From: Escherichia phage LF82-4
Strand: one strand, 5' to 3'
Sequence record: PV660448
DNA length: 64,000 bases
The position numbers and the translations under genes are program-made. Shown piece by piece: positions 20,736 to 53,603 of this stretch (positions are counted from its first letter, which is position 1; each line of letters opens with the position of its first letter). Below the pieces are notes generated by a model. The model ran no database searches. It was not told the DNA's origin and saw only the letters and a program-made list of their open reading frames with translations.

Positions 20736-20914
20736 GGCTTAATTTCCTTCGCAATTGAACAGAAGATACTACGGTCACAAAGCATTTCACCAATTTCTGG
20801 GTATTTGATTGAACGGTACCAAACATCCAGGCTTGAAACTCTGGTTATCTGTACTGCATTACCGTTGACAGAATAGTACTGGTCAACCTTAATTTCTTTA
20901 TCTTCAATTGTCAT
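20732..20914 (-). CDS. hypothetical protein (60 aa)
   Basis: ATG at 20914 with GAGGAAA RBS; longer track ORF starts further upstream. Confidence 0.45.
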   Translation of the reverse strand: MTIEDKEIKVDQYYSVNGNAVQITRVSSLDVWYRSIKYPEIGEMLCDRSIFCSIAKEIKP

Positions 20915-21064
20915 TTTGTTTTCCTCTATAGCAGATGGTTTAATCTTAACATATCTATCGAGGATGTAAACTGTTTTATGAAAATATTTTTGATTTGAGA
21001 GGGGCACAAGGAGATAGTGAAGTGAAGATTCCAATGGATTATATTAGAAATGAGATAAAGAAGA

Positions 21065-30238: not shown

Positions 30239-30766
30239 TTATGCGTGAACCGTCTTTAAACGTTCTTCAAATTTCCGAAGAGTACTAATACGTTCTGCTT
30301 TCTGTTTTGTATAGTTTGCAATACGTTCTGAAGTGAGAGCGTATCGTTCGTTTACTGTTTCTTTCATGAAGTCAGGGATTTCACGAGAAGCTTTAATTTC
30401 ATCAAACTTGTCGAGTACTGCCTGGTCTTCAGCGATTAAATTTTCGTACATCTCGATATCTTTCTTGATAAACTCGATATCTTCCTGGGTTACTTTGGAT
30501 AAACGAGACGCTTTATCCTTTTTGTACTGCTCGTTAGTTTCACGAGACCAGAATAATGTACGTTTTTTGTTAGTGTTTTTGTAGACTTCCACAATTCCAA
30601 CTGAATCGATGATAACAATCCAATTCCAGCGAGATTTGAAAATCTGACCTCCGTCCACGGTAATCTCGTTATCATAAGCAACGTCATTAAAGAACTTGCT
30701 CTGTGCTTCAGATTTAAATTTACCGTCGTTATAATTTACCAGGTTGAAAATATCTTTAGCGTTCAT
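30239..30766 (-). CDS. hypothetical protein (175 aa)
   Basis: track ORF with ATG. Confidence 0.6.
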   Translation of the reverse strand: MNAKDIFNLVNYNDGKFKSEAQSKFFNDVAYDNEITVDGGQIFKSRWNWIVIIDSVGIVEVYKNTNKKRTLFWSRETNEQYKKDKASRLSKVTQEDIEFIKKDIEMYENLIAEDQAVLDKFDEIKASREIPDFMKETVNERYALTSERIANYTKQKAERISTLRKFEERLKTVHA

Positions 30767-30785
30767 GTTTTACCTCCAGTAGTTG

Positions 30786-30822
30786 ATAGGTCTATAATAA
30801 CACAACCATAGACCTTGTAAAC
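30786..30822 (-). promoter_or_regulatory. promoter-early stem-loop, family ttgataggtctataataaca
   Basis: GTTTAC -35; inverted repeat AGGTCTAT/ATAGACCT around TATTAT. Confidence 0.5.
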
Positions 30823-30824
30823 AA

Positions 30825-31112
30825 CTAAAAGAAACTTTTTTCAGTATTTTTTCCACTGAACCAAACCGACTTCGGGGTTTTCTGTAACTTTTCAGATTTA
30901 AGTTTCTCTTCCTGTTCTTTCTTATATACACTCTTGTCGTACTGGAGCATCTCTATGGCATTCTTTTGCAAACGATCTAAGGTAATTAAGGCTTTAGTTT
31001 TTCCTTTCAAGGAAGAGTCCTGGCGAACCTCCTCGCTATATTGCATTGTAGAACTAACCATACGATGAGCATAGAGTTCGACTGCGGCTTTAATTTTTTG
31101 CATAAAATCCAT
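30825..31112 (-). CDS. hypothetical protein (95 aa)
   Basis: track ORF; an alternative overlapping ORF 31007-31213 exists. Confidence 0.45.
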   Translation of the reverse strand: MDFMQKIKAAVELYAHRMVSSTMQYSEEVRQDSSLKGKTKALITLDRLQKNAIEMLQYDKSVYKKEQEEKLKSEKLQKTPKSVWFSGKNTEKSFF

Positions 31113-34533: not shown

Positions 34534-34640
34534 TTTACCATACTCGTTTCAATAAGATTCACTATGCCGTTTACCATGTTATAAGTAAACATCGGATAAT
34601 TGTATTGTACTACAACATAAGCGATAAGCAAAAGTTTCAT
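34530..34640 (-). CDS. hydrophobic peptide (36 aa), not in ORF track
   Basis: ATG at 34640 with GGAG RBS; TGA overlaps downstream ATG. Confidence 0.25.
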   Translation of the reverse strand: MKLLLIAYVVVQYNYPMFTYNMVNGIVNLIETSMVK

Positions 34641-34659
34641 TTTGTTCTCCGTTCGTTTT

Positions 34660-34698
34660 GGTAGGACTACTATAACATAGTCCTACCAAGATGTAAAC
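34660..34698 (-). promoter_or_regulatory. promoter-early stem-loop, family taggactactataacatagtcct
   Basis: GTTTAC -35; 9-bp inverted repeat GTAGGACTA/TAGTCCTAC around TATAGT-like -10. Confidence 0.5.
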
Positions 34699-34931
34699 TA
34701 CCGATTGTGTTTTAAATGTTGATAAAGTTCTTCAACTTGTTTAGGGTCCAAAACAATTAGGTCATTTTCTTGGCGAAGATAAAGCCATCCCTTATCCCCA
34801 GGACCATTTTTACAAAACATCGCCACCATATCATCATCTTCAGCGCTTTCAGGTAAAAGTTCAAGCACACCGTCTTCAGATTTTCCAGTATAATCGTAAA
34901 GCATAATATCCTCACATAATCTCGTTAACAT
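34698..34931 (-). CDS. hypothetical protein (77 aa)
   Basis: track ORF. Confidence 0.5.
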   Translation of the reverse strand: MLTRLCEDIMLYDYTGKSEDGVLELLPESAEDDDMVAMFCKNGPGDKGWLYLRQENDLIVLDPKQVEELYQHLKHNR

Positions 34932-35091
34932 ACATTTGCAATTCGGTGTGAGCGTCGGCCATCTTTTTCATAGCTCTGTTAATGTCGATGTCTCCATCTT
35001 CGCAACCATGAGCATTTTCCCAATCAGATACCGCATTAGCGTACTCTTCAATCAAAAACATCAACTTAGAAATCTTTTCTTTACGTGTCAT
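34912..35091 (-). CDS. small protein (59 aa), paralogue of 34354-34533
   Basis: ATG at 35091 directly after SD-bearing inverted-repeat arm. Confidence 0.45.
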   Translation of the reverse strand: MTRKEKISKLMFLIEEYANAVSDWENAHGCEDGDIDINRAMKKMADAHTELQMYVNEIM

Positions 35092-35095
35092 AACG

Positions 35096-35147
35096 TTCTC
35101 CTCTAGTAAGTAAGGTCTACTATAACACAACCTGAGGAGAAGTAAAC
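35096..35147 (-). promoter_or_regulatory. promoter-early stem-loop with SD in 3' arm (8-bp inverted repeat TTCTCCTC/GAGGAGAA flanking TATAGT)
   Basis: minus strand GTTTAC TTCTCCTCAGGTTGTGT TATAGT ...CTAGAGGAGAACGTT ATG. Confidence 0.55.
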
Positions 35148-35155
35148 TGCTAAAT

Positions 35156-35186
35156 GCAAAAAAGCCCCAACCTTTCGGAAGGGGCT
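35156..35186 (-). terminator. intrinsic terminator, copy 1 of 3 identical hairpins
   Basis: minus strand AGCCCCUUCCGAAAGGUUGGGGCU followed by UUUUUUG; 5 nt after stop of 35191-35748. Confidence 0.6.
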
Positions 35187-35190
35187 TTGA

Positions 35191-35748
35191 TTAGTTTTTG
35201 TAATATCGTAAAGGGTTGATATGGAATGAAAGCATTGCGCGTGGAATAGGACGTCTCAAAAGACTCTTAAGTTTCCAACCACAGTAAACACGCAGATAAA
35301 ATGTAATACCACCAACCTTAAGATAAGGTATAGCAGCGAATAATCCCCATGCAGACTCGTTCCAAACTAAAAGATATCCATGATGTGCTGGGTCAGGAGA
35401 TCCTGATTTAGTTTCGGCGTTGCCTTTATAGTGCCATTTTGATGAAGCTTCGCGACCTAAAACATGATACGAAAAATTATATGCTTTGTTGCGCCATAAC
35501 CAAGCTACGCGTTGAGCATATTTACCTATAACAGGAATTTTACGTATTTTAGACCAACGTTCAACATGGCCACGGTCACCATCGATAGGATTATCGTAAG
35601 TCATCATCCAGTCAAAGCCATAAGGTAGTTTACCGGTTTTTTCACTATGGAATGGAACTACAAATGGTGCTAGAATAATTGCTAAAATCGCTGCGATCCA
35701 ATCTATAGGAACAAGAACAACCCAACTTACATATTTTAAAAATTTCAT
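35191..35748 (-). CDS. membrane-anchored protein (185 aa), late-promoter driven
   Basis: N-terminal TM helix; TATAAATA late promoter 25 nt upstream; AGAGAGGA RBS. Confidence 0.6.
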   Translation of the reverse strand: MKFLKYVSWVVLVPIDWIAAILAIILAPFVVPFHSEKTGKLPYGFDWMMTYDNPIDGDRGHVERWSKIRKIPVIGKYAQRVAWLWRNKAYNFSYHVLGREASSKWHYKGNAETKSGSPDPAHHGYLLVWNESAWGLFAAIPYLKVGGITFYLRVYCGWKLKSLLRRPIPRAMLSFHINPLRYYKN

Positions 35749-35772
35749 ATATCCTCTCTTAGTTTACAAGGA

Positions 35773-35780
35773 TATTTATA
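35773..35780 (-). promoter_or_regulatory. late promoter TATAAATA
   Basis: exact T4 late consensus on minus strand, 25 nt upstream of ATG at 35748. Confidence 0.6.
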
Positions 35781-35809
35781 CAAAAAGCCCCAACCTTTCG
35801 GAAGGGGCT
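35781..35809 (-). terminator. intrinsic terminator, copy 2 of 3 identical hairpins
   Basis: same 24-bp hairpin plus U-tract, 7 nt after rI stop. Confidence 0.6.
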
Positions 35810-35815
35810 AGTAAA

Positions 35816-36118
35816 TTAGATAGATGTAGGCTCTAATTTTATTTTCATGAACTCGGCAAATTGTCTGGCGGTTTTTATGCCTTGTTCATGACATTCAAAT
35901 GCATCATCACAGGGGCTATTTTTGTAATGCTTTGCCATATACTTATAGAATTTTTCAGAGTTCTCGACATTTTGAATTTCAAACAAAGTATATACGTTTT
36001 TAATCCCTGATTCCATAAAGTTATCAAAGTATGGGTCAATATGTGCAGTACCAACGATAGGAGTTGTTGCTGCAAAAAACCCCAGCATCGCCATGACAGC
36101 TATCGCTCTTAAGGCCAT
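35816..36118 (-). CDS. rI: lysis inhibition regulator (periplasmic, signal-anchored)
   Basis: 100 aa; MALRAIAVMAMLGFFAATTPIVG signal; ...DPYFDNFMESGIKNVYTLFE... resembles T4 RI as recalled. Confidence 0.85.
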   Translation of the reverse strand: MALRAIAVMAMLGFFAATTPIVGTAHIDPYFDNFMESGIKNVYTLFEIQNVENSEKFYKYMAKHYKNSPCDDAFECHEQGIKTARQFAEFMKIKLEPTSI

Positions 36119-36130
36119 ATAGGCCTCCTG

Positions 36131-36343
36131 TTAATTTTGGCCAGTATTTATTTTTCGCCTTTGGACGGCCTTAACATCTGTGAGGTATTTTTCCAGCTTG
36201 CGCTTGCGTGTATAATCAGCTTTAGAACCAGTTTGACGGATATCCTCGTTTAAATGAGAAATAGAATGTCCTAATTCTCTTCGGATTTCATCCAATTGGG
36301 TTACAGTAAGATTACGAAGTTGTCTTTCGTTTAATTGCTGCAT
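36131..36343 (-). CDS. hypothetical protein (rI.1-like)
   Basis: 70 aa; late promoter TATAAATA at 36368-36375. Confidence 0.55.
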
Positions 36344-36367
36344 ATATACCTCTTGGTTAGATATTAG

Positions 36368-36375
36368 TATTTATA
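36368..36375 (-). promoter_or_regulatory. late promoter TATAAATA (inside 3' end of tk)
   Basis: exact late consensus on minus strand, 25 nt upstream of ATG at 36343. Confidence 0.55.
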
Positions 36376-36952
36376 ACAACCCTGTCAAATCATTCCAATG
36401 CTTCCGGCATAATGACACATATCTATCGGTATCACCAATTTCAATTTGACTGCCATCTGTAATTGGAAGTCCGTCTTCCGTGACTCTAGCTACCATTGTG
36501 GCCTTTTTACCACAATGACAGACACCTTTAAGTTCAACAAGCTTATCGGCAATAGCCATTAATGCTTGAGAACCTTCAAATAGATTACCTTTAAAATCTG
36601 TTCGTAGTCCATATGCCATTACCGGCACATTGTATACGTCAACAATACGACTAAGTTGATACACCTTTTCAGTAGTTAAGAACTGAGCTTCGTCAACAAA
36701 TACGCAGTGAATATCCTTTTGTGCTGCAGCCCATTTATAGAATTCAAAGATATCCATGTCTTTTGTAATTATATTGGCATCCTGACGAATACCAATACGA
36801 GAGACTATTTCACCTTTTGAATTACGAGTATCAATAGCCGGTTTAAGAACTAATACACCCATGCCACGTTCTTTATAGTTATGTGCGGCAGTAAGTAATG
36901 AAGCAGACTTACCAGCGTTCATAGCGGCATAGGTAAAAATTAAACTAGCCAT
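36371..36952 (-). CDS. tk: thymidine kinase
   Basis: 193 aa; P-loop NAGKSASLL, C-terminal Zn motif CHCG...C; T4 synteny. Confidence 0.93.
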   Translation of the reverse strand: MASLIFTYAAMNAGKSASLLTAAHNYKERGMGVLVLKPAIDTRNSKGEIVSRIGIRQDANIITKDMDIFEFYKWAAAQKDIHCVFVDEAQFLTTEKVYQLSRIVDVYNVPVMAYGLRTDFKGNLFEGSQALMAIADKLVELKGVCHCGKKATMVARVTEDGLPITDGSQIEIGDTDRYVSLCRKHWNDLTGLL

Positions 36953-37142
36953 AAGAGTCCTTAGTTAAATTTTCTAAATATGTTTCTAAATCATTTTCAG
37001 CTTTATTGATAGATTTTACTAATTCGTAGTATGTTTCGGCATCTCCATATTCAGAAGATATTTCAAAAGACAAATCCTTTTCTAAACTAATAATTTCACC
37101 AACTAAAAATAATATTTCGTTCTTTTGTTCGCGAGTAATCAT
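36945..37142 (-). CDS. hypothetical protein (tk.x-like)
   Basis: 65 aa. Confidence 0.5.
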   Translation of the reverse strand: MITREQKNEILFLVGEIISLEKDLSFEISSEYGDAETYYELVKSINKAENDLETYLENLTKDSYG

Positions 37143-37330
37143 AATGAATTTATATAATCAATAAGTTCTTGCTCTTTATCGTCAAAATCTTTACACAGTT
37201 CTTCGTATTCGTCAGTATTAAAAGGACCGCATTCATTACAAACTTTTTCCAATTCGCTATTTTTATCCATAACTTCGTGGATAAGAGAAAAGAGTTTGTC
37301 TTTTTGTTCTTTACTTAAACTCATAACCAT
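37139..37330 (-). CDS. hypothetical protein (tk.x-like)
   Basis: 63 aa; N-terminal region similar to previous ORF (possible duplication). Confidence 0.5.
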   Translation of the reverse strand: MVMSLSKEQKDKLFSLIHEVMDKNSELEKVCNECGPFNTDEYEELCKDFDDKEQELIDYINSL

Positions 37331-37548
37331 GTCACCTTTAAACAGTATTCTTCTACATGCTGTTTACGACCTTTCTTATCAATAAAGGTATATTCAACGA
37401 ATGTTCCAATGTAGTCTTTATCGACATCATGTGGACTATTAATTGGACATTTAGTACGACAAATGCGTTCCCATTGACGAATAATTACTGCTTTATTTTT
37501 AGGATCAAACGGATGTGGGTAATGCACATTCATAATAATGGTTCCCAA
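37321..37548 (-). CDS. hypothetical protein (75 aa)
   Basis: track ORF. Confidence 0.5.
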   Translation of the reverse strand: MGTIIMNVHYPHPFDPKNKAVIIRQWERICRTKCPINSPHDVDKDYIGTFVEYTFIDKKGRKQHVEEYCLKVTWL

Positions 37549-38027
37549 TCAACAATCACAATTTCTAGTTTAGTGGAATATGTATCAAGAATTTCTTCAA
37601 TGATATCCCAGTTTCCACCACCTATACCTGCACCAATTCTTGGCATGTAAATCACAGGCTTTGCTATCTTATTCTTTCCGAATTTATTTAATTCTATTAT
37701 ACAATTCATTAAAGCAGAGTACTCAAAATTAGGTCCGGGCTCAAACTGTGTATAAAGATTAAAGCAATAAGCTTTATGGGTCTTAAAATATTTTTCATAA
37801 ACCGAATAGGAACCGAGTTTAGACTCGTCTCCGAATTCGGTTTGAAGTTTATCGGCTTCTAAAATTTTTGGATAAGCCTTTGCTAATTGTCCTGCTACAC
37901 CAGCGCCCATTGTATGAAAACAATTGCACCCATGAGCAATATTATTACCTTTAGAAAACAGGGCGACAATATCGCCCTTGATATAGTTTTTAATCACTTG
38001 CTGCAAGTCCTCTAGTATAAGAGTCAA
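37530..38027 (-). CDS. macro-domain protein (ADP-ribose binding/hydrolase fold)
   Basis: motifs NNIAHGCNCFHTMGAGVAG and IGAGIGGGNW resemble macro-domain signatures; start is non-ATG (TTG at 38027 or GTG at 37997 with GAGGA RBS). Confidence 0.6.
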   Translation of the reverse strand: MTLILEDLQQVIKNYIKGDIVALFSKGNNIAHGCNCFHTMGAGVAGQLAKAYPKILEADKLQTEFGDESKLGSYSVYEKYFKTHKAYCFNLYTQFEPGPNFEYSALMNCIIELNKFGKNKIAKPVIYMPRIGAGIGGGNWDIIEEILDTYSTKLEIVIVDWEPLL

Positions 38028-38337
38028 CTAGACGGTCCACCATAGAATTGCATGCTGCCTTATCTTTAGGTTCCGCCACCGAGCATTCTAATATTTGCCA
38101 TTTTTTATAGTATCTTTTAATTAAGGTAGACGCCTTGAACCTACTAGACGCCCCATCTTTTTCTCCGTCTTTATATGCATATAACAATTTTTGTGAAAAA
38201 TCTACTTTACACTCTTGACTTTTACCACAATAATCAGACGCCGTTCTGTTTGTATACTCCGTTACATCAGTATATGTAGTATTAGCAAGAGCGTTAAATG
38301 AAACCAAGCCAACTATTAAAGCCAACATTTTGGTCAT
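37990..38337 (-). CDS. secreted protein with signal peptide (115 aa)
   Basis: MTKMLALIVGLVSFNALA signal. Confidence 0.55.
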   Translation of the reverse strand: MTKMLALIVGLVSFNALANTTYTDVTEYTNRTASDYCGKSQECKVDFSQKLLYAYKDGEKDGASSRFKASTLIKRYYKKWQILECSVAEPKDKAACNSMVDRLVDSYTRGLAASD

Positions 38338-38876
38338 TCTTTTATTTCCAGTAGTTTATTTGATTTAAGGTAATTAGCCTTTTCTAGGACTTCAGAAGCA
38401 TATTTACTTCCAGCACTTGTCTTCCATCCAGCATTATATGAGGATATGGCTTTCCTTATATCCCCGTTATGTATATTTAACCAATAAGAAAATTCGATAT
38501 AAGCCCATCTTGCTGAATTAGACCGCTTAGATAGCATTTTCTTAATTTGGGCATCAGTCATATTATAACCAAGCTGGTTAATTCTTGCCCTCATTGTTGG
38601 TAGATAATTTTGGAACATTCCATACGCATGGTGACCTTTCTTATCTTTAAGATTAATACCGGCAGATGATTCCTGCCATAGTATTGCGGCCATTATGTAT
38701 CCAAGTCCTTTCTTATGCATATTTTCATGCGTTTTAAATTTTCCATCCTTAGAAAACTGTTCCCCAAACTGATAAGCATAATTCAAGTTATCGAGTTGGA
38801 CATTACTAAAAGTATGCTCGGAGCTATGTGCTGATAACGAAAGAGCAAATAGACCAGCGAGTAGTGCTTTTCTCAT
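38334..38876 (-). CDS. periplasmic lytic-transglycosylase-like protein (SLT domain)
   Basis: signal peptide; ILWQESS catalytic-Glu motif, GMFQ and SYNAG motifs. Confidence 0.6.
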   Translation of the reverse strand: MRKALLAGLFALSLSAHSSEHTFSNVQLDNLNYAYQFGEQFSKDGKFKTHENMHKKGLGYIMAAILWQESSAGINLKDKKGHHAYGMFQNYLPTMRARINQLGYNMTDAQIKKMLSKRSNSARWAYIEFSYWLNIHNGDIRKAISSYNAGWKTSAGSKYASEVLEKANYLKSNKLLEIKE

Positions 38877-38884
38877 GTTTACCT

Positions 38885-39343
38885 CTAGATTTTAATCACT
38901 GCTTTAGAAGCTTTTCCTGGTAGTCGTTTACTGTTAATAATAGCCATTCTGCATTGAAGAGTCTTCATTTTGAATGCTGGATTTTCGCGACAAACTGTAA
39001 GTCCTAACCAAAGATTTCCATCAGTTATTTCTAAACGGCCTGGGCGATATTCGACACCTTCGACAAAATCTTCATCAACATCTGGACGTGCCGGCATTGA
39101 TAAAAATTCTGCAACTTCTTTAGCATGATTTTTTACTTTATGAAATAATTCAAAAACGTAATTCTCATCTATTTCTCTCTGGATGGCACGATCTAAGAGA
39201 TGTTGAGAATACTTGATATGAAAGCCTGGTAGTCCAAGAGACTTTGCAGCATCTTTTATACCGGCATTTATTTTGCGGAACTCCGTTTCAAAGATTCGAC
39301 GGAGTTTATTACGGCGGATAAAAACTTCCGAATTGATAGTCAT
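38885..39343 (-). CDS. regB: endoribonuclease RegB
   Basis: 152 aa from ATG 39343 (MTINSEVFIRRNKLRR...); matches T4 RegB as recalled; track start is TTG. Confidence 0.85.
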   Translation of the reverse strand: MTINSEVFIRRNKLRRIFETEFRKINAGIKDAAKSLGLPGFHIKYSQHLLDRAIQREIDENYVFELFHKVKNHAKEVAEFLSMPARPDVDEDFVEGVEYRPGRLEITDGNLWLGLTVCRENPAFKMKTLQCRMAIINSKRLPGKASKAVIKI

Positions 39344-39350
39344 TTTGATT

Positions 39351-39400
39351 TCTCCTCTAGTTGACAAGTCTATAGTAACACAACTAGAGGAGAAGTAAAC
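39351..39400 (-). promoter_or_regulatory. promoter-early stem-loop with SD in 3' arm (10-bp inverted repeat TCTCCTCTAG/CTAGAGGAGA) upstream of regB
   Basis: minus strand GTTTAC TTCTCCTCTAGTTGTGT TACTAT ...CTAGAGGAGAAATCAAA ATG. Confidence 0.55.
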
Positions 39401-39699
39401 TACTCTTTGAAAGGAATTAACTTTTTAACTGCTTTAGATACTTCGTCACGAACCTGATGGAAGTTCTTGAGCTGTTCAAGGCGTTGTTCGTAATACGCAA
39501 TCTCATCTTCTTCAAGACAATCGTCAGCGTCTTCTTTCAGATATGCCTTGTACTCATTAAAGAGGGCCCATAGGCGGTTCTCAAAGTCATCAAGGCTTTG
39601 AATTTTCTTGTGCTTCGGAACAAGGCCAAAAGGATTGCTTTCAGTTATGCGTCTAGATGCTTCATAATGAGTTCCAAAGCCTGATAGGATTTGAGCCAT
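39400..39699 (-). CDS. hypothetical protein (vs.3-like position)
   Basis: 99 aa; ATG start. Confidence 0.55.
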
Positions 39700-39965
39700 T
39701 AGTATTTTTCCTCAGGTCGAAATACTGCACGACAGGCCCACATGCTGGCTTCTTTTAGATGTTGCTTAGCATACTTAAGAGCCTGTACTGCATCCATATC
39801 TTCTTTGGTTTGTTGCTCTGTTTCATTTTCTTTCAAGATATATGCTTCTTCAATCAGAGCATCAAACAACAATCCAAGACGGACTTCTGCATCTTTAATA
39901 GCGTTCACTTTACCGATTTTATCGTCGGTATGCGGCTTGTAGCCTTTGATGTCTTCAATCGACAT
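39699..39965 (-). CDS. hypothetical protein (88 aa; position of T4 vs.4)
   Basis: ATG at 39965; longer track ORF N-terminus is an out-of-context extension. Confidence 0.5.
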
Positions 39966-40179
39966 AAGGAATTTCCTCATCGGTGACAAGGTCATATTCG
40001 ACCAATTGGATAGGCTCGTTAATACCATATCCACGTACAGTGATATCGGTTGTCGGATATTTTCCAGTAATATCACCCATTCTAAATGCTTCAGTGAATG
40101 ATTGCTCACCTGAGCAACTAAACCAGGCGGCAAAACATTTTAAAACATCTTCAGACCCTTCTATAATCAATTTAGCCAT
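39955..40179 (-). CDS. hypothetical protein (74 aa)
   Basis: ATG start; 1-nt overlap with GrcA-like stop. Confidence 0.5.
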   Translation of the reverse strand: MAKLIIEGSEDVLKCFAAWFSCSGEQSFTEAFRMGDITGKYPTTDITVRGYGINEPIQLVEYDLVTDEEIPYVD

Positions 40180-40541
40180 TATAGACTCTCAGTAAAGGTA
40201 CGAGCGATAACGTCGCGCTGCTGTTCCGGAGTCAGAGAGTTAAAGCGAACTGCATAACCGGATACACGAATGGTCAGCTGAGGATATTTTTCCGGATGCT
40301 TAACTGCATCTTCCAGAGTTTCACGACGCAGAACGTTAACGTTCAGGTGTTGACCACCTTCAATTTTAACTTTAGGTTGATGTTCAATTTCAATTTCACG
40401 GGCATGTAAACCGTAGAAAATTTCCGGGTCTACAATAGCGTCTTCTTTAAAAGTCTTAGAGACGATAATCCGGGCTTGAGTACCATCTTCAAAATAAATA
40501 GTGCCTTTATGTACACCTTCAAGAATTTGATATGCTTTCAT
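40179..40541 (-). CDS. autonomous glycyl radical cofactor (GrcA/YfiD-like)
   Basis: 120 aa; C-terminal ~60 aa (…[59 protein letters not shown]) match E. coli GrcA as recalled incl. glycyl-radical site RVSGYAV; 3' half visibly GC-richer. Confidence 0.8.
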
Positions 40542-40547
40542 ATAACC

Positions 40548-40856
40548 TCAATTAGAAAATAAATTTATCCAAGTTTTTTCTTTAATCAAAAATGGGTCGG
40601 AATTAAACGCCATTAAACTTTGAGTGATTAATCCCTTAAACGGCCCATCAATAAATTCCATTTTGAAATGCGGAATACTAGTCATCAACCGTGCATTAGG
40701 AGCAGTACAAAGAACCTGCTGCCCCGCGAAAGGACCTTTAGTCAAACTGTATCGTTTAGGTTTAAAATGGTAAATCTCATAATTTTCTACAAGAGCCCTT
40801 TTATTGCATACTGGGCTGTTATAACAATATTCAAAAACTTCAATAGTGGTCATCAT
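40548..40856 (-). CDS. hypothetical protein (102 aa)
   Basis: track ORF. Confidence 0.5.
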   Translation of the reverse strand: MMTTIEVFEYCYNSPVCNKRALVENYEIYHFKPKRYSLTKGPFAGQQVLCTAPNARLMTSIPHFKMEFIDGPFKGLITQSLMAFNSDPFLIKEKTWINLFSN

Positions 40857-41392
40857 TGCATTCCAATCACAAAAAATTGAGGACGAGCATTACCGCCGAT
40901 GCAATATTTGCTTTTGCAACAGTGTTGGACTGTTTTAATATGGACATTGTAAATCTTATCCATATCAGGAGCTTTAATAGGCTCGTCAATTATGTACAGA
41001 ATACGAGAAAGCGTTAATCCACGGAATTTAGAACCTTCATTGCCAATAAAACTACGGACAGAATCGGTAAATAAACGGAATCGAATATCATCGCTAGAAT
41101 AACGAGAAAATTCTTTTTTAATGTTGCCAGCAGAAATTTTAGCATAGGCTGAAGTATTAGAAAGAACAATAACTGTTCCACCATCATACAGCCAATTAGC
41201 AGCAAAGTTAGTCACAGCAATTGATTTACCTGATTGTCGGCCGCCGTCTAAACGAAGTGTACAGTACTGCTTGAGTACGTCTTCAAACGGTGGGATATAA
41301 CCGTTCTTACAAATTTCTTCTACTCTAGCATCAGAATGGTGTGTAAAAGCATTCATCAGGGATAGATAAGGTCCAGTTAAAAATGTTCTCAT
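40853..41392 (-). CDS. hypothetical protein (179 aa) with P-loop-like GGRQSGKS
   Basis: ATG start; Walker-A-like motif. Confidence 0.55.
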   Translation of the reverse strand: MRTFLTGPYLSLMNAFTHHSDARVEEICKNGYIPPFEDVLKQYCTLRLDGGRQSGKSIAVTNFAANWLYDGGTVIVLSNTSAYAKISAGNIKKEFSRYSSDDIRFRLFTDSVRSFIGNEGSKFRGLTLSRILYIIDEPIKAPDMDKIYNVHIKTVQHCCKSKYCIGGNARPQFFVIGMQ

Positions 41393-41452
41393 TTAGTTTC
41401 TCTTTTAGGTTGGGCCATTCCGTGGCGCATGAATTGTCCATTTCTGTATTTA

Positions 41453-41503
41453 CCCCTCTAAGTAATTATGAATATACTATCACAATTCTAGGAGAAAGTA
41501 AAC
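41453..41503 (-). promoter_or_regulatory. promoter-early stem-loop with SD-like 3' arm
   Basis: minus strand GTTTAC TTTCTCCTAGAATTGTG ATAGTA ...CTTAGAGGGG. Confidence 0.4.
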
Positions 41504-41505
41504 TG

Positions 41506-41808
41506 TTATTTACCTTTAATTACTTTAGCTGCTTCGATAGCCGCTTGCTGAAGGTCATCCATAGACATACCGAATTTAGAAGCAAAGTTATCAATTTTCT
41601 TTTCGACAGCATTCAAAGGCTTGGCCTGTTTACCTTCATTAGCGCCAGGAAGAGCGAGAATACGCTCTTTGTCAATATAAAGGCTTACAAGTTTCTTACG
41701 GTCTTTATCGGACAAATCATGAAATGAATGGGCCTTTTTATTTATAGCGGCTTCTAATTTACCTGCACTCACTCGCGCTTCAGTAATAAATTCTTGATAT
41801 GTTTTCAT
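41506..41808 (-). CDS. internal head protein (capsid-targeting sequence)
   Basis: N-terminus MKTYQEFITEARV... = T4 IP capsid-targeting signal. Confidence 0.75.
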   Translation of the reverse strand: MKTYQEFITEARVSAGKLEAAINKKAHSFHDLSDKDRKKLVSLYIDKERILALPGANEGKQAKPLNAVEKKIDNFASKFGMSMDDLQQAAIEAAKVIKGK

Positions 41809-41839
41809 TTTTTGTTTCCTTGTTTGTTTTGATAGAGTA

Positions 41840-41869
41840 ATTATACCATATTAATACTTAAGCGTAAAC
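41840..41869 (-). promoter_or_regulatory. early promoter (GTTTAC -35, TATAAT -10)
   Basis: minus strand GTTTACGCTTAAGTATTAATATGGTATAAT; upstream of IP gene 41506-41808. Confidence 0.5.
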
Positions 41870-41872
41870 AAT

Positions 41873-42133
41873 TTAAGCTTTACCGCCAGAAATAATTCCG
41901 AAGTTGTTAAAATCGTATCCAATATCGTCAACATCTACTTTAGGATTTACTACAACATAAGCAATTTCACTACGTTTTGCATAGGTGTTGATTTCTTTAC
42001 CATCGCCACCTAAGAAAGAATACCCATTACGTTTTAATGAGCCAAAGTCTTCGGCATCACCAATGAAAGCTTTAACTTTAAATTTAGGACCTTTGGCATC
42101 TGCTTCAATGATAAATTCTTGATACATTTTCAT
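41873..42133 (-). CDS. internal head protein (capsid-targeting sequence)
   Basis: N-terminus MKMYQEFIIEADAKG. Confidence 0.7.
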   Translation of the reverse strand: MKMYQEFIIEADAKGPKFKVKAFIGDAEDFGSLKRNGYSFLGGDGKEINTYAKRSEIAYVVVNPKVDVDDIGYDFNNFGIISGGKA

Positions 42134-42139
42134 TTTTCC

Positions 42140-42553
42140 TTAGTAAATTGATTTACCATAGTATTTGTACCAAGTAGGACGTTGAGCAATTTTTTCATCT
42201 AAGCGTGCTTGACTTATCGCAACGGACGCTTCGGACGGGACATAATTATTACGAAATTCGGCAGGGATGTCGGAAATATCCTGGACTGTCGTGTCCTTGA
42301 TTTTGAAACCACGTTTCAAGCATTCAGCGATTAGCTCGATTTGTCGTAAACGTAAAAATTCAAGTTTGTCGTAAAAGAATGTTACGTGACCTGTGCCTAA
42401 GATAAATGTTGGAGAGATTTTAAAATCCTTTACACGTTTACCGTTTTGGACATGTTTACGGACTGCACTAAATACGCGTGGTAATTCACGATACTCAGCC
42501 ATAAGATGTTGATCGGTCAGTTCAGAAACAAGTGTTAAATTGATACGAGTCAT
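42140..42553 (-). CDS. denV: endonuclease V (pyrimidine dimer DNA glycosylase)
   Basis: 137 aa from ATG 42553 ([28 protein letters not shown]...); matches T4 DenV as recalled. Confidence 0.93.
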
Positions 42554-42556
42554 AAT

Positions 42557-42610
42557 TTCCTCCAAGTAGTTGATGAATGTATAGTATCAAAACCCTTGGA
42601 GGAAGTAAAC
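42557..42610 (-). promoter_or_regulatory. promoter-early stem-loop with SD in 3' arm (10-bp inverted repeat TTCCTCCAAG/CTTGGAGGAA) upstream of denV
   Basis: minus strand GTTTAC TTCCTCCAAGGGTTTTG ATACTATA ...CTTGGAGGAAATT ATG. Confidence 0.55.
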
Positions 42611-42611
42611 A

Positions 42612-42893
42612 CTATTTTTCTGAAGCGCCTGAAATATATTTTTCAAGACGTTGTTTCATCAGCGAGCCGTTCTTAGCGATTTCTTCCGGTTTATCGCACA
42701 TACGTAACAAGGCTTCAAGCTTAGCGATATCGCTGGTACGTTCAAATTTGCGAGTATCTATCTTACTAGCAAGTTCAGAAATACGTGCTAATAGACTTTC
42801 GGCTTCAACCAAAGCTGCACCTAGCTTAGTTGCAAATGTGTCAGTAGCTTCGTTAAGAATAGATTCTGATAAAAATTCACTATATGTTTTCAT
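42612..42893 (-). CDS. internal head protein (capsid-targeting sequence)
   Basis: ATG at 42893 gives [13 protein letters not shown]...; overlaps e stop (ATGA). Confidence 0.7.
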
Positions 42894-43378
42894 ATATACG
42901 CTTTCCAAGTTCCTGTTTTAAATGTTGAGATTACGCGTTTCGCGCGATTAGGTGTCTGACGATACCATTTAGATTGGGCGAGATTTACTGCCGCTTCATC
43001 CCAACGTTTCTGTTGAAGCATACGAAGAGAATTAGTAAAACCAGCAACGCCTGCTACACCCATTTGGAAGACCATATTGACCAATGCACATCGACGAACC
43101 GCGTCTAAAGAATCATATACCGGTTTAAGTTTAGCATTACCCAAGATTCCGCGAACGGCTTTATCGACGTCTTCGTTAAATAGCTTTTCAGCCTCATCAA
43201 GGGTAATTGTACCGTTGCATTTACGACCGATCATTCTGTCAAGTTCAGCTTTAGCTACGGCTAAAGACGGGTTCTTTGTTACTAAATGGCCTATGCCAAT
43301 CGTCCAAAAGCCTTCAGTGTCTTTGTATAAAGTCAGTCTAAGACCTTCGTCATTACGAAGCATTTCAAATATATTCAT
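42890..43378 (-). CDS. e: lysozyme (endolysin)
   Basis: 162 aa from ATG 43378 ([32 protein letters not shown]...); matches T4 lysozyme as recalled; track start is GTG inside upstream hairpin. Confidence 0.95.
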
Positions 43379-43380
43379 AA

Positions 43381-43404
43381 TACCTCCCACGTTTATAGGA
43401 GGTA
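43381..43404 (-). promoter_or_regulatory. stem-loop sequestering the lysozyme Shine-Dalgarno (7-bp stem UACCUCC/GGAGGUA, loop UAUAAACGUG)
   Basis: read directly; SD GGAGG is the 3' arm, 4 nt before ATG; loop carries TATAAA late-promoter-like element. Confidence 0.6.
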
Positions 43405-43412
43405 TTTATTAC

Positions 43413-45261: not shown

Positions 45262-45567
45262 TTATTTTCCTCGACATTCTTTAATGAAATTTTCTAGATT
45301 GGTAGATTCAATAGCTTTTTTACGAGCTTCTGCATGTTCTTCTTCAGACAATTTACATTTATAATTAACCCAGACGTTATGGTCAAAACTAGTCGTGGCA
45401 TATAATAACAATGCTCCAACGAATAGCAAAAACGGCGATAAGAATACAAAACCAGGAACACCATCCATATCGTAAGCCTTTTGTAATACTGCAACAGAAA
45501 GGGCTGCGTAAAAAGGTGATGCAAATATTGTTAAAAGACCAATTCGGTTGGTTTCGCCTAATTTCAT
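45262..45567 (-). CDS. membrane protein (101 aa)
   Basis: two hydrophobic helices; GAGGAGAAT RBS. Confidence 0.55.
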   Translation of the reverse strand: MKLGETNRIGLLTIFASPFYAALSVAVLQKAYDMDGVPGFVFLSPFLLFVGALLLYATTSFDHNVWVNYKCKLSEEEHAEARKKAIESTNLENFIKECRGK

Positions 45568-45588
45568 AATATTCTCCTCATGTTTTTA

Positions 45589-45626
45589 ATAGGACTACTA
45601 TAACATAGTCCTATAATTGTGTAAAC
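45589..45626 (-). promoter_or_regulatory. promoter-early stem-loop, family taggactactataacatagtcct
   Basis: GTTTAC -35; inverted repeat ATAGGACT/AGTCCTAT. Confidence 0.5.
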
Positions 45627-45638
45627 AGTTTTGTGAAG

Positions 45639-46620: not shown

Positions 46621-46872
46621 TTAAATTTCGCGACATGCGATATTATATTCATCCCAGAGGTCGTCATGTGAAGCCTCTACCAATGGAACGATTGTACCAT
46701 TTATATCTTCATTATAAGGGCAAATTGTACAGTGCGCATCTTCGAATCGGATGCCTTTGTGTTCAGATTTTTTATAACGCATATCGAATATCTTTGCAAA
46801 CTTTTCACGAGTAATAGTTTTAGCAACTACTTCGGTTCCTATACTTTCGTAATAAACCATTGTTGTCTCCAT
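46621..46872 (-). CDS. hypothetical protein (83 aa)
   Basis: track ORF. Confidence 0.5.
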   Translation of the reverse strand: METTMVYYESIGTEVVAKTITREKFAKIFDMRYKKSEHKGIRFEDAHCTICPYNEDINGTIVPLVEASHDDLWDEYNIACREI

Positions 46873-46880
46873 TTAATTTG

Positions 46881-46918
46881 ATAGGACTACTATAACATAG
46901 CCCTATCTTGTTGTAAAC
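46881..46918 (-). promoter_or_regulatory. promoter-early stem-loop, family taggactactataacatagtcct (one arm mismatch)
   Basis: GTTTAC -35; gataggactactataacatagccctatc. Confidence 0.45.
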
Positions 46919-46922
46919 TGTT

Positions 46923-49999: not shown

Positions 50000-50305
50000 T
50001 TAATTTTTCCAACTTAACAACTTGTAGTGTCCTTCATTCGTACGAGGTTTATCCCAATAGATATTAATAAACGATGTCTCACCAATAGAAGTCGGCGGTT
50101 TTTTCTCTACAGTAAGACCTTCGCTTTCTAACCACTCAATGACTTTTGTAGATAAAGCTAAAGAAACATGTAATGGACAACGACAGTATTTTTCACCTTT
50201 AGCTGAAGACTCGTACATCATTTCTAAAATACGTTTTTGCACTTTTTTAAAAATAGTTTCAGCAGATTCTTCAGATTTTTTATTCAGTTCAGTGTAAAGA
50301 CTCAT
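50000..50305 (-). CDS. hypothetical protein (101 aa)
   Basis: track ORF with ATG. Confidence 0.55.
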   Translation of the reverse strand: MSLYTELNKKSEESAETIFKKVQKRILEMMYESSAKGEKYCRCPLHVSLALSTKVIEWLESEGLTVEKKPPTSIGETSFINIYWDKPRTNEGHYKLLSWKN

Positions 50306-50322
50306 AATATTCTCCTCTGCGG

Positions 50323-50362
50323 TTGATAAGTCTATAGTATCATGTCCTTAGAAGAAGTAAAC
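50323..50362 (-). promoter_or_regulatory. promoter-early stem-loop, family ttgataagtctatagtatca
   Basis: GTTTAC -35; 20-bp core identical to 49951-49970. Confidence 0.45.
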
Positions 50363-50392
50363 AACTTTTTAAACTTTTTCTGCCCTAGATAC

Positions 50393-50421
50393 CAAAAAGC
50401 CCCAACCTTTCGGAAGGGGCT
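50393..50421 (-). terminator. intrinsic terminator, copy 3 of 3 identical hairpins
   Basis: same 24-bp hairpin AGCCCCUUCCGAAAGGUUGGGGCU plus U-tract. Confidence 0.55.
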
Positions 50422-51794: not shown

Positions 51795-51866
51795 TGGCCC
51801 TGGCTGGTTTCGATCCAGCTACCTATCAGTTATGAGCTGACAGCTCTCCCATTGAGCTACAGGGCC
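51795..51866 (-). tRNA. tRNA with anticodon CAU (Met or Ile2-type)
   Basis: 72 nt cloverleaf folded by hand: acceptor GGCCCUG/CAGGGCC, D-arm GCUC/GAGC, anticodon stem GUCAG/CUGAU with loop CUCAUAA, T-arm GCUGG/CCAGC; no encoded CCA. Confidence 0.8.
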
Positions 51867-51960
51867 TTAATAACTTTCTATTATGAAAGGCACTTTAGAG
51901 CACCTTTGGTAATAGAGGGTAGATTAATAATAACACATAATTCTTAAAGCAAATTACGTT

Positions 51961-52611: not shown

Positions 52612-52797
52612 TTACTCACCTTTTGCAATTTTATCCATAACGATAGCGATTAAGCCGATTAGAAATGCTACTACCAATGAGATAGAATTTTCTGTTGTTG
52701 TCAGTAGTCCACAAATGAATCCTACAAACATCGAAAAACTAAAAGCCATTGAAGCAATTACTACAGCAACATTACGAATCAGTTCAGCGCGTTTCAT
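52612..52797 (-). CDS. small membrane protein (61 aa)
   Basis: two hydrophobic helices. Confidence 0.5.
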   Translation of the reverse strand: MKRAELIRNVAVVIASMAFSFSMFVGFICGLLTTTENSISLVVAFLIGLIAIVMDKIAKGE

Positions 52798-52816
52798 TTT
52801 ATTCTCCTCAGTAGTT

Positions 52817-52855
52817 GATAGGGTAATAGTATCACTACCCTATCTAAAAGTAAAC
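52817..52855 (-). promoter_or_regulatory. promoter-early stem-loop (9-bp inverted repeat GATAGGGTA/TACCCTATC)
   Basis: GTTTAC -35 at 52850-52855. Confidence 0.5.
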
Positions 52856-52866
52856 GGTTTTATAAA

Positions 52867-53175
52867 CTATTTTATTCCGCGTGATGCAATCGTATTCTGC
52901 CGTTTAACACCAGTTTGTTTAAAGTCATGACTGTCGATTTGATCGGTGCGAGCAACTCCGAATGATGATTTAATCTTAGCTTTAGATCCTTTAGTTATAG
53001 AAATAAACATCTCGGAAGACCCTTTCTTAAAGTCTGATGCAGATACTTCAACACCGTTCTTAGCAAGTGACCTCAGAATTGCATCCGCGTACTCATCATC
53101 AAGACTCGCTTGAGTATTAATAACAAATGTCTTTGGTGCAGCCGCTTCATTGATAAATTCTTTATAGGTTTTCAT
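52867..53175 (-). CDS. internal head protein (capsid-targeting sequence)
   Basis: N-terminus MKTYKEFINEAAAP. Confidence 0.7.
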   Translation of the reverse strand: MKTYKEFINEAAAPKTFVINTQASLDDEYADAILRSLAKNGVEVSASDFKKGSSEMFISITKGSKAKIKSSFGVARTDQIDSHDFKQTGVKRQNTIASRGIK

Positions 53176-53197
53176 TTTATTTTCCTAATTAATTTTG

Positions 53198-53235
53198 ATA
53201 GGACTACTATAACATAGTCCTATTAGCATGTAAAC
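53198..53235 (-). promoter_or_regulatory. promoter-early stem-loop, family taggactactataacatagtcct
   Basis: GTTTAC -35; inverted repeat ATAGGACT/AGTCCTAT. Confidence 0.5.
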
Positions 53236-53238
53236 TAC

Positions 53239-53526
53239 TTACAGAAGGGTTTTTGCAATAATTTTAAGCTGAGCTACAGAAATATGCTTAGCTTTAAACA
53301 GTGCAGTCTCTTCAGCCGGAGAGATAACAATAGTAGCGCCATCTTTCTTAGCAGACCATCCATCCCCTAAGTAAACAGTACCTTTTACTTCTTCGCCATC
53401 AACCAGACTAATCATTGGTTTACCCTCACGTCCTTTATTTGCTTTAATAACTTCGGAAGTAAGGGTCGCTTCGGTCAGAGTAGAAACGTTAGCATCAGGT
53501 GATATAAATTCTTTATAGGTTTTCAT
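53239..53526 (-). CDS. internal head protein (capsid-targeting sequence)
   Basis: N-terminus MKTYKEFISPDANV. Confidence 0.7.
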   Translation of the reverse strand: MKTYKEFISPDANVSTLTEATLTSEVIKANKGREGKPMISLVDGEEVKGTVYLGDGWSAKKDGATIVISPAEETALFKAKHISVAQLKIIAKTLL

Positions 53527-53554
53527 TTTATTTCCTTGAGGTTGTTTATTTTAT

Positions 53555-53590
53555 AGGATGATAGTAACACACCATCATCCTTATGTAAAC
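53555..53590 (-). promoter_or_regulatory. promoter-early stem-loop (8-bp inverted repeat AGGATGAT/ATCATCCT)
   Basis: GTTTAC -35 at 53585-53590. Confidence 0.5.
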
Positions 53591-53603
53591 TGTTTTGTGA
53601 AAA

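Follow-up and report, generated by a model that had tools for sequence, protein, structure and literature searches.

Hairpins that make the translation of a gene depend on where its transcript begins have been described in bacteriophage T4 for e, soc, 49 and I-TevI, and also for I-TevII, I-TevIII, segB and mobE of phage Aeh1: the Shine-Dalgarno sequence (SD), the AUG or both are placed in the 3' arm, and the hairpin is present only on RNA initiated upstream (PMC3014915, PMC2988022). The T4 e hairpin reduces lysozyme synthesis approximately 100-fold (PMC3014915). According to a 2010 review of mobile elements, the genes regulated in this way 'are all late genes' (PMC2988022), and a 2010 review of post-transcriptional control lists late-promoter cases only (PMC3014915). 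In this study, we analysed a stretch of 64,000 nucleotides from Escherichia phage LF82-4 (PV660448), referred to as the window, in which hairpins of this kind are built into the early promoters of regB, denV and a gene of 59 amino acids. These cis-acting hairpins probably insulate the translation of early genes from read-through transcription. The model, which is supported by folding predictions, is that transcripts reading through from upstream fold and hide the SD and that transcripts from the gene's own promoter leave it free. We infer an effect on translation, as well as the existence and abundance of the read-through transcripts.

A second type of structure at phage promoters is the PeSL (promoter-early stem-loop; Arbiol 2010; Comeau 2014), for which five subclasses have been defined, with the stem lying upstream of the -35 box, over the -35 box, between the boxes, over the -10 box, or between the -10 box and the start. 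PeSLs have been interpreted as sites of recombination and of transcription termination or attenuation, and in these accounts translation and the ribosome are never mentioned (PMC2839356, PMC4122927). A search of the accessible literature, which did not extend to the older work on T4, yielded no account of SD hairpins at early promoters. Valerie et al. are said to have pointed out in 1986 possible stem-loops before T4 ipIII, ipII and denV, and an earlier notice is therefore possible.

The window is derived from an RB69-like Mosigvirus (Straboviridae, Tevenvirinae). Coordinates refer to its whole length; all genes of the region, including those bearing the hairpins, lie on the minus strand and are read as the reverse complement. 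The annotation was taken from PV660452.1 (Escherichia phage LF82-9), which is 100% identical over 35000-43000, and the annotated neighbours, tk, vs, an endoribonuclease (regB), internal head proteins, endonuclease V (denV) and nudE, mark the region as the counterpart of the tk-e early region of T4. Approximately 21 early-promoter units were identified on the minus strand by searching for GTTTAC-N16-19-TAnnnT with a downstream SD and ATG, and their transcription start (+1) was predicted as the seventh base after the -10 box. Judged by their sequence, the promoters are of the early type, GTTTAC-N17/18-TAnnnT, which is sigma-70-type, and are not late promoters. Rfam contains no family matching the hairpins, and its sole match in the window is one tRNA.

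An earlier inspection of the letters alone, the sequence-only reading, had proposed a layout of a GTTTAC -35 box, arm 1, the -10 box, and an arm 2 that constitutes the SD, followed by the ATG, and this order can be read directly on the minus strand at 39400, 42610 and 35147. In the regB leader (39350-39400), the -35 box (39400-39395) is followed by arm 1, TTCTCCTCTAGTTG (39394-39381), the -10 box TACTAT (39377-39372), a predicted +1 at approximately 39365, arm 2, CAACTAGAGGAGAA (39363-39350), and the ATG at 39343. The denV leader (42557-42610) consists of the -35 box (42610-42605), arm 1, TTCCTCCAAG (42604-42595), the -10 box TACTAT (42586-42581), a predicted +1 at approximately 42574, arm 2, CTTGGAGGAA (42566-42557), and the ATG at 42553. 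At site 1 (35096-35147), preceding the 59-amino-acid gene (34912-35091), the -35 box (35147-35142), arm 1, TTCTCCTC (35141-35134), the -10 box TATAGT (35124-35119), a predicted +1 at approximately 35112, arm 2, GAGGAGAA (35103-35096), and the ATG at 35091 form a hairpin of -12.3 kcal/mol. The stems had been taken as 8-10 perfect base pairs (bp), which underrates regB, where 14 perfect bp are found. Site 4 (41439-41503, minus strand), rightly regarded as less clean, is composite: the -35 hexamer together with UUUCUC (41503-41491) pairs with GAGGGGUAAA (41458-41449), so that an outer stem of GUUUACUU.CUC with GAGGGGUAAA, in which G-U pairs are used, is stacked on an inner stem formed by the spacer with the -10 box (TAGTAT, 41479-41474). 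Its ATG at 41441 opens an open reading frame (ORF) of only 36 amino acids. At all four sites arm 1 lies 5' of the predicted transcript start and arm 2 lies within the 5' untranslated region (UTR). The stop codon of the upstream ORF overlaps the -35 box at regB (TAG, 39402-39400) and lies at or abuts it at denV (TAG, 42614-42612) and site 4 (TAA, 41508-41506); because the upstream ORFs end at the -35 box, RNA reading through must contain arm 1.

The accessibility of the SD was calculated from the partition function for long leaders, which include the promoter region or upstream RNA, and for short leaders, which start at the gene's own promoter. The predicted probability that the SD is unpaired was 0.000 in the long and 0.65-0.68 in the short regB leader, 0.000 and 0.30-0.40 for denV, 0.001-0.006 and 0.41-0.72 for site 1, 0.01-0.13 and 0.54 for site 4, and 0.01-0.13 and 0.63-0.90 for a further instance at 20971. 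The gap was robust to flanking RNA of up to 250 nt upstream and up to 100 nt downstream. This comparison had been named as a check on the sequence-only reading, and its outcome, an SD accessibility of about 0.00 in long against 0.3-0.7 in short leaders, is the one expected. The minimum free energies of the leaders were -21.6 kcal/mol for regB (z -3.77), -19.4 for denV (z -3.51) and -17.1 for site 4 (z -2.67), compared with 0 to -2.5 kcal/mol for the short leaders. A positive control is provided in the same window by the gene e leader hairpin (43382-43410, minus strand; ACCTCC../..GGAGGT), which carries the late-promoter-like AATAAATA in its 5' part. The downstream coding sequence (CDS; 42890-43378, minus strand) is a 'hypothetical protein' in PV660452 and is identified as the homologue of T4 lysozyme (gene e) because the protein begins MNIFEMLR. 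Here the probability was 0.000 in the long and approximately 0.6 in the short leader, the same contrast as at the early promoters, in keeping with the earlier suggestion of a logic shared with T4 e, and the new stems are at least as stable as this hairpin.

The occlusion exceeds what the composition of the promoters would produce. The sequence GTTTACTTNNNC occurs five times against 0.77 expected. In the promoter-containing leaders at 42610, 39400, 35147, 20971 and 30822 the SD is predicted to be paired (probability unpaired at most 0.02), and no more than one in 100 spacer shuffles per site equalled the observed occlusion. Among the strict promoter, SD and ATG units, 4 of the 17 possess an SD-containing stem of at least seven net Watson-Crick pairs; over 300 spacer shuffles the number of such units averaged 0.88 and never exceeded 3.

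Evidence that the pairing itself matters comes from orthologues of regB and denV, the loci of which were fetched from IMG/VR and which keep the pairing with differing arm sequences in dozens of T4-like phages. For regB, at least 11 lineages of T4-like phages retain a stem between the bases directly after the -35 box and the SD, using at least 11 different arm pairs. The RB69-like pair TTCTCCTCTAGTTG/CAACTAGAGGAGAA is replaced in T4 by TTTTCCTCTTGACTG/CAGTTAAGAGGAGAA (15 bp including two G-U pairs) and in further lineages by TTTCTCCTCTTTATG/CATAAAGAGGAGAAA, ATCTCCTTTTAGT/ACTAAAAGGAGAT, ATCTCCTGTAG/CTACAGGAGAT and TCTCCTGTAAG/CTTACAGGAGA; in ATCCTCATTTG/CAAATGAGGAT the core of the SD is altered and arm 1 is altered to match. 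Among the denV orthologues arm 1 shifts between the spacer and the -10/+1 region (as in ATGTCCTCCTA/TAGGAGGACAT and GATGTCTTCC/GGAGGACATC, where it lies at -10/+1), and arm 2 is the SD throughout. In an alignment-free test, the promoter segment of each lineage was paired with its own 5' UTR and with those of the other lineages. Own pairing averaged -16.1 kcal/mol against -10.2 for cross pairing at regB, where the lineage's own arm was the best partner in 10 of 14 cases, and -13.6 against -9.4 at denV; none of 5000 permutations was as good at either locus. RNAalifold returned no structure for a MAFFT alignment of 20 regB leaders, in which the arms are out of register because the loop lengths differ. 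When 17 regB leaders were aligned by fitting to a covariance model, 91.4% of the cells were paired compared with 75.7% after shuffling, 9 of 14 pairs had changed on both sides, and the covariation score was 0.366 against 0.111 for shuffled alignments (0 of 500) and 0.03-0.07 for slid partners. As the fitted alignment leans towards the model, more weight is given to the permutation test. Within the stems, G-U outnumbers A-C by 22 to 5 (at least eight net pairs) or 31 to 12 (at least seven), a count that is supportive rather than decisive, the sequences being related and partly fetched with a pattern that forces the core. This IMG/VR pattern scan, which forced TCTCC..GGAGAA and is biased accordingly, was used only for this count and for extensions of the stem beyond the core. 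The excess of G-U over A-C argues for pairing in the sense-strand RNA rather than in a DNA cruciform or an antisense RNA, and the sequence comparison indicates that the pairing is under selection at the RNA level. The central claim of the sequence-only reading, namely that RNA from the gene's own promoter lacks arm 1 and has a free SD and that read-through RNA is occluded, is thereby upheld in folding, in the gene e control, in the strong covariation at regB and denV and in the G-U excess.

The same layout is present in T4 (NC_000866); it is thus not confined to the window but belongs to T-even-type early promoters more generally. When the complete T4 genome was scanned in the same way, with occlusion defined as an unpaired probability of the SD of at most 0.04 in the long and at least 0.36 in the short leader, occluded SDs were found at denV, nrdC.8, regB, modB, e.8, nrdC.4, motB.2, 30.8 and nrdC.10, and also in the alc and ndd.4 regions. 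Stems of at least seven pairs occurred in 10 of 31 strict early-promoter units, compared with 2.2 in shuffles. The GenBank and RefSeq records of T4 contain no annotated promoter or stem-loop features.

In the mechanism that we propose, a gene's own sigma-70-type early promoter would lie inside the hairpin, with the 5' arm in the spacer (elsewhere over the -10/+1 region) and the SD region as the 3' arm. RNA from this promoter would start 3' of the 5' arm, keep its SD single-stranded and be translated right after infection. RNA from upstream early or middle promoters would contain both arms and form a stem of -12 to -22 kcal/mol with the SD paired, so that the cistron would be silent on long polycistronic transcripts, which could still carry the downstream genes. 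The expression of genes such as regB and denV would then follow only their own immediate-early promoter and end when the early promoters are shut off. The T4 regB promoter has been described as a typical early promoter, and the early promoters of T4 fall silent within minutes (PMC3014915), for which reason only an immediate-early burst is expected; such a burst fits the statement that RegB production needs tight limits. A terminator scan detected no strong terminator between the denV and regB promoters. A terminator-like hairpin (35150-35186, minus strand; GCCCC..GGGGC followed by a T-run) directly precedes the promoter of site 1, where the stem would thus act as a second lock. Rho-dependent polarity in the untranslated cistron, a speculative complication, could mimic attenuation in transcriptional fusions.

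Several points weigh against the insulation model. Only about a quarter to a third of the early promoters carry an SD hairpin, and SD pairing is weak or absent in some regB lineages (L235, L257, L259 and Aeromonas phages), from which it follows that the hairpin is dispensable. Taken as a whole, the site 1 leader (-15.3 kcal/mol) does not exceed its shuffles in stability (z -0.94), and for denV the own-promoter leader is open to a moderate degree only (0.3-0.4). The stem could also be opened in part by ribosomes that terminate at the stop codon, which lies 5-7 nt upstream of arm 1, although with the usual helicase reach and at this distance they would be expected to open only 0-2 bp. Finally, modB RNA is structured over its GGAG and resistant to RegB in vitro, yet it is cut in vivo (Durand et al., PMC1702504), and such structures may sometimes fail to form in vivo. 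In the T4 modB leader (-35 box at 13186, ATG at 13130) the pairing partner of the SD is the -10/+1 region of the gene's promoter (GATAGCTTC/GGAGGCTATC), and the molecules cut in vivo may be own-promoter transcripts devoid of the 5' arm.

An alternative is that the hairpin serves as a shield, hiding the GGAG of the SD from RegB in long transcripts, so that polycistronic delayed-early and middle RNAs survive and short early RNAs are cut. RegB requires a single-stranded GGAG, secondary structure is protective and most GGAG-bearing middle transcripts are resistant (PMC3014915); sixteen resistant T4 GGAG sites lie in stable structures (PMC1702504), and many SDs in the window consist of GGAG followed by an A-rich tail. 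However, the GGAG of T4 denV is not cut even when unstructured and became a substrate only once it was given an AAUAAAA tail (PMC1702504), whereas its hairpin is conserved with covariation; protection from RegB cannot therefore be the primary reason for the stem, and the connection with this GGAG-cutting nuclease that the sequence-only reading had drawn is not needed. Some occluded SDs, moreover, match the RegB motif poorly, among them GAGGAAAA at 20971 and, in lineage L249, GAGGAU. Protection would not call for an alternative structure but would follow incidentally from the same stem: a paired GGAG is likely to be spared in long RNAs as a side effect, and a shield as the actual function is rather unlikely. 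That the stems are instead terminators or attenuators and recombination cassettes of the PeSL type, with an incidental overlap of the SD, agrees with the description of PeSLs in T4-type phages including the T4/PST pair and with one RB49 stem-loop that lowered lacZ expression like a strong terminator (PMC2839356, PMC4122927). The dispersal of the promoter cassettes as repeats and the spacer/-10 stems of PeSL type at many other promoters of the window point the same way, as does the site 4 cassette, which is similar both to the promoter of T4 ipIII and to that of denV at locus L035 and hence stands before different genes in different phages. The hairpins described here are nevertheless not intrinsic terminators, because they lack a U-tract and are followed by A-rich sequence and the ATG; their loops span 17-24 nt and none is included in the list from the terminator-like scan. 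Recombination requires identity, whereas here complementarity is kept while the arm sequences change; arm 2 is always the SD, even where arm 1 relocates among the denV orthologues, and the stem of a PeSL, in each of the five positions published, precedes the start site. We regard this explanation as quite improbable.

A third possibility is that the symmetry acts at the DNA level, as a cruciform or an element of promoter strength, or is a chance by-product of a long early-promoter consensus combined with a common SD. Early promoters do share a long consensus and the SD GAGGAGAA is common, so that a pyrimidine-rich spacer will often match it, and composition-keeping shuffles still partly pair the regB SD (mean unpaired probability 0.08). 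Shuffles almost never match the observed occlusion, however, the own arm is the best partner in 10 of 14 regB lineages, and G-U is tolerated far above A-C, a distinction that a DNA duplex or cruciform would not make; an origin of this kind appears very remote. The insulation model is thus preferred, and the description of the hairpin as a reusable cassette is retained for one part only: the promoters do belong to dispersed repeat families (D1-D5) and the site 4 cassette precedes various genes, but the arms are gene-specific and co-vary, which means that an architecture is conserved and not one fixed mobile sequence. More tentatively, and as a possibility that we would not yet favour, a large fraction of early genes in T-even-type phages may have the spacer or the -10 box of their own promoter as the anti-SD, a genome-wide translational insulator through which an early cistron would be readable and RegB-cuttable only on its own immediate-early RNA, whereas on read-through RNA of the delayed-early and middle classes it would be silent and resist the nuclease. 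[quoted passage not shown]

Further promoters of the window (all on the minus strand) illustrate the range of the arrangement. At 20912-20971, outside the range of the sequence-only reading and before a hypothetical gene of 60 amino acids, the -35 box (20971-20966) is followed by arm 1, TCCTCGATAG (20964-20955), the -10 box TAAGAT (20948-20943), arm 2, CTATAGAGGA (20931-20922), and the ATG at 20914, the arms pairing with one mismatch. A variant at 30764-30834, before an nrdC.8-like gene, has an arm 1 (UUUCUUUUAGUUG) upstream of and overlapping the -35 box (30822-30817) and an arm 2 (CAACUACUGGAGG) with many G-U pairs that wraps an inner spacer/-10 stem; its SD is unpaired with a probability of 0.02-0.03 in the long and approximately 0.6 in the short leader, and in T4 the nrdC.8 SD is occluded by a different arm 1. 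The unit at 50303-50362 (families D5 and D9) shares its terminator and promoter with the site 1 cassette, of which it is a degenerate paralogue; its arm 1 is TTCTTCT, and its SD is not dependably occluded (0.33-0.72). Most other early promoters of the window carry a stem between the spacer and the -10/+1 region that leaves the SD free, namely those at 34640-34701, 45567-45629, 46860-46921, 53175-53238, 52797-52858 and 53526-53593. These free-SD stems are near-identical, 8-10 bp long (for example TAGGACTATG..TAGTCCTA), fit the published PeSL positions and belong to repeat families D1/D2.

The terminator-like hairpin at 35150-35186 is one of three near-identical copies of family D9 (with 35773-35809 and 50385-50421; AAAAAGCCCCAACCTTTCGGAAGGGGCT on the plus strand). 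Two copies adjoin, on the upstream side, the paralogous promoters 35147 and 50362; the third lies beside the late-promoter sequence TATAAATA at 35780 and flanks a 185-amino-acid ORF (35191-35748). Downstream of site 4, the vs.8 homologue (179 amino acids, 40853-41392, minus strand) shows 91% identity to residues 41-219 of T4 Vs.8 and lacks the first 40 residues, and the 36-amino-acid ORF after the promoter (41331-41441) lies in another frame and bears no relation to T4 Vs.8. Two overlapping CDSs are annotated here; the region 40853-41441 may represent a recombination junction at the promoter cassette or a frameshift. Repeated 5' ends of small genes (MKTYQEFI...; families D6-D8) occur at 41779-41815, 42104-42140, 42864-42893, 53146-53182 and 53497-53533 and include annotated internal head or virion protein genes; presumably they encode the common N-terminal capsid-targeting sequence of T4 internal proteins. 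The single tRNA gene matched by Rfam (51795-51866, minus strand) is preceded by a MotA-box-like middle promoter (TTTGCTTTAA N12 TATTAT) at 51954. Among the denV loci, four from giant phage genomes of 345-378 kb (L040, L042, L047 and L048) have a TTGAC -35 box within a terminator-like hairpin (GGGTTGACTTCGGTCAGCCCTTTTT) approximately 60-30 nt upstream of the ATG, directly followed by TATAAT, a composite of terminator and promoter that shows no SD pairing.

If the insulation model is true, T4-type phages time the translation of early genes with an RNA device built into the promoter, beyond transcription and cleavage by RegB, and PeSL-like cassettes acquire a function in translation, one left out of account by those who described them. 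RegB's puzzling choice of substrates would in part receive an explanation that can be tested. The model would also matter for annotation and for the engineering of therapeutic T4-like phages, since a gene moved without its promoter spacer, or provided with an additional upstream promoter, would change in translation in a way that is not obvious. Because T4 has the same architecture at regB, denV, modB, nrdC.8 and others, the model is directly testable in the best-developed phage genetic system.

Compared with the systems described to date, the hairpins share features with each. Fold-back inhibition in IS10 and IS50, reportedly described by Davis, Simons & Kleckner in 1985 and by Schulz & Reznikoff in 1991, is said to pair the transposase's ribosome-binding site on RNA read through from outside, and the element's own sigma-70 promoter reportedly starts inside the structure and gives translatable RNA. 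In contrast to the window, this concerns the single gene of a transposable element, has the prevention of accidental activation as its purpose, and involves neither a temporal programme nor a dispersed family. The sites of RegB and S1 (GGAG with an A-rich tail) resemble the 3' arms in the window, which hold GGAG-type SDs of early genes, and the regB SD is a known RegB site in T4 and its relatives; a RegB site, however, is a linear single-stranded motif, whereas the feature described here is the pairing partner of that motif and occurs also at SDs that RegB spares. Like PeSLs, the units combine an early promoter, preceded by an AT-rich region, with a stem-loop and with an SD and ATG at the 3' end; they are likewise repeated in early or hyperplastic regions, and the cassettes stand before different genes in related phages. 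As cassettes of this description, the window units (families D1-D5) conform to the PeSL definition, and the promoters 34698, 45626, 46918 and 53235 also match the PeSL positions; the SD hairpins depart from these positions, with a 3' arm that is the SD and lies 2-10 nt downstream of the predicted +1. The T4 e-type hairpins are closest in logic. In both, the promoter lies within the hairpin, so that transcripts from it would be devoid of the 5' arm, and in the e-type these are the ones translated; the stems of the window behave alike in prediction: the SD is paired in upstream-started transcripts, with covariation in agreement, and by sequence the -35 box precedes arm 1, the -10 box is in the loop and the +1 lies past arm 1. 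They differ in timing, as the internal promoter of the e-type is late (TATAAATA, gp55) and confers 'late only' expression, whereas that of the window is neither a late promoter nor attached to a late gene but is sigma-70-type and early, belongs to early genes such as regB and denV, and would be expected to confer expression from the gene's own immediate-early RNA only. If this is true, the textbook mechanism of T4 lysozyme, soc, 49 and I-TevI widens from 'late only' to 'immediate-early only'; the known logic of the late-gene hairpins is extended to early promoters, an extension that is not surprising in principle and is widespread.

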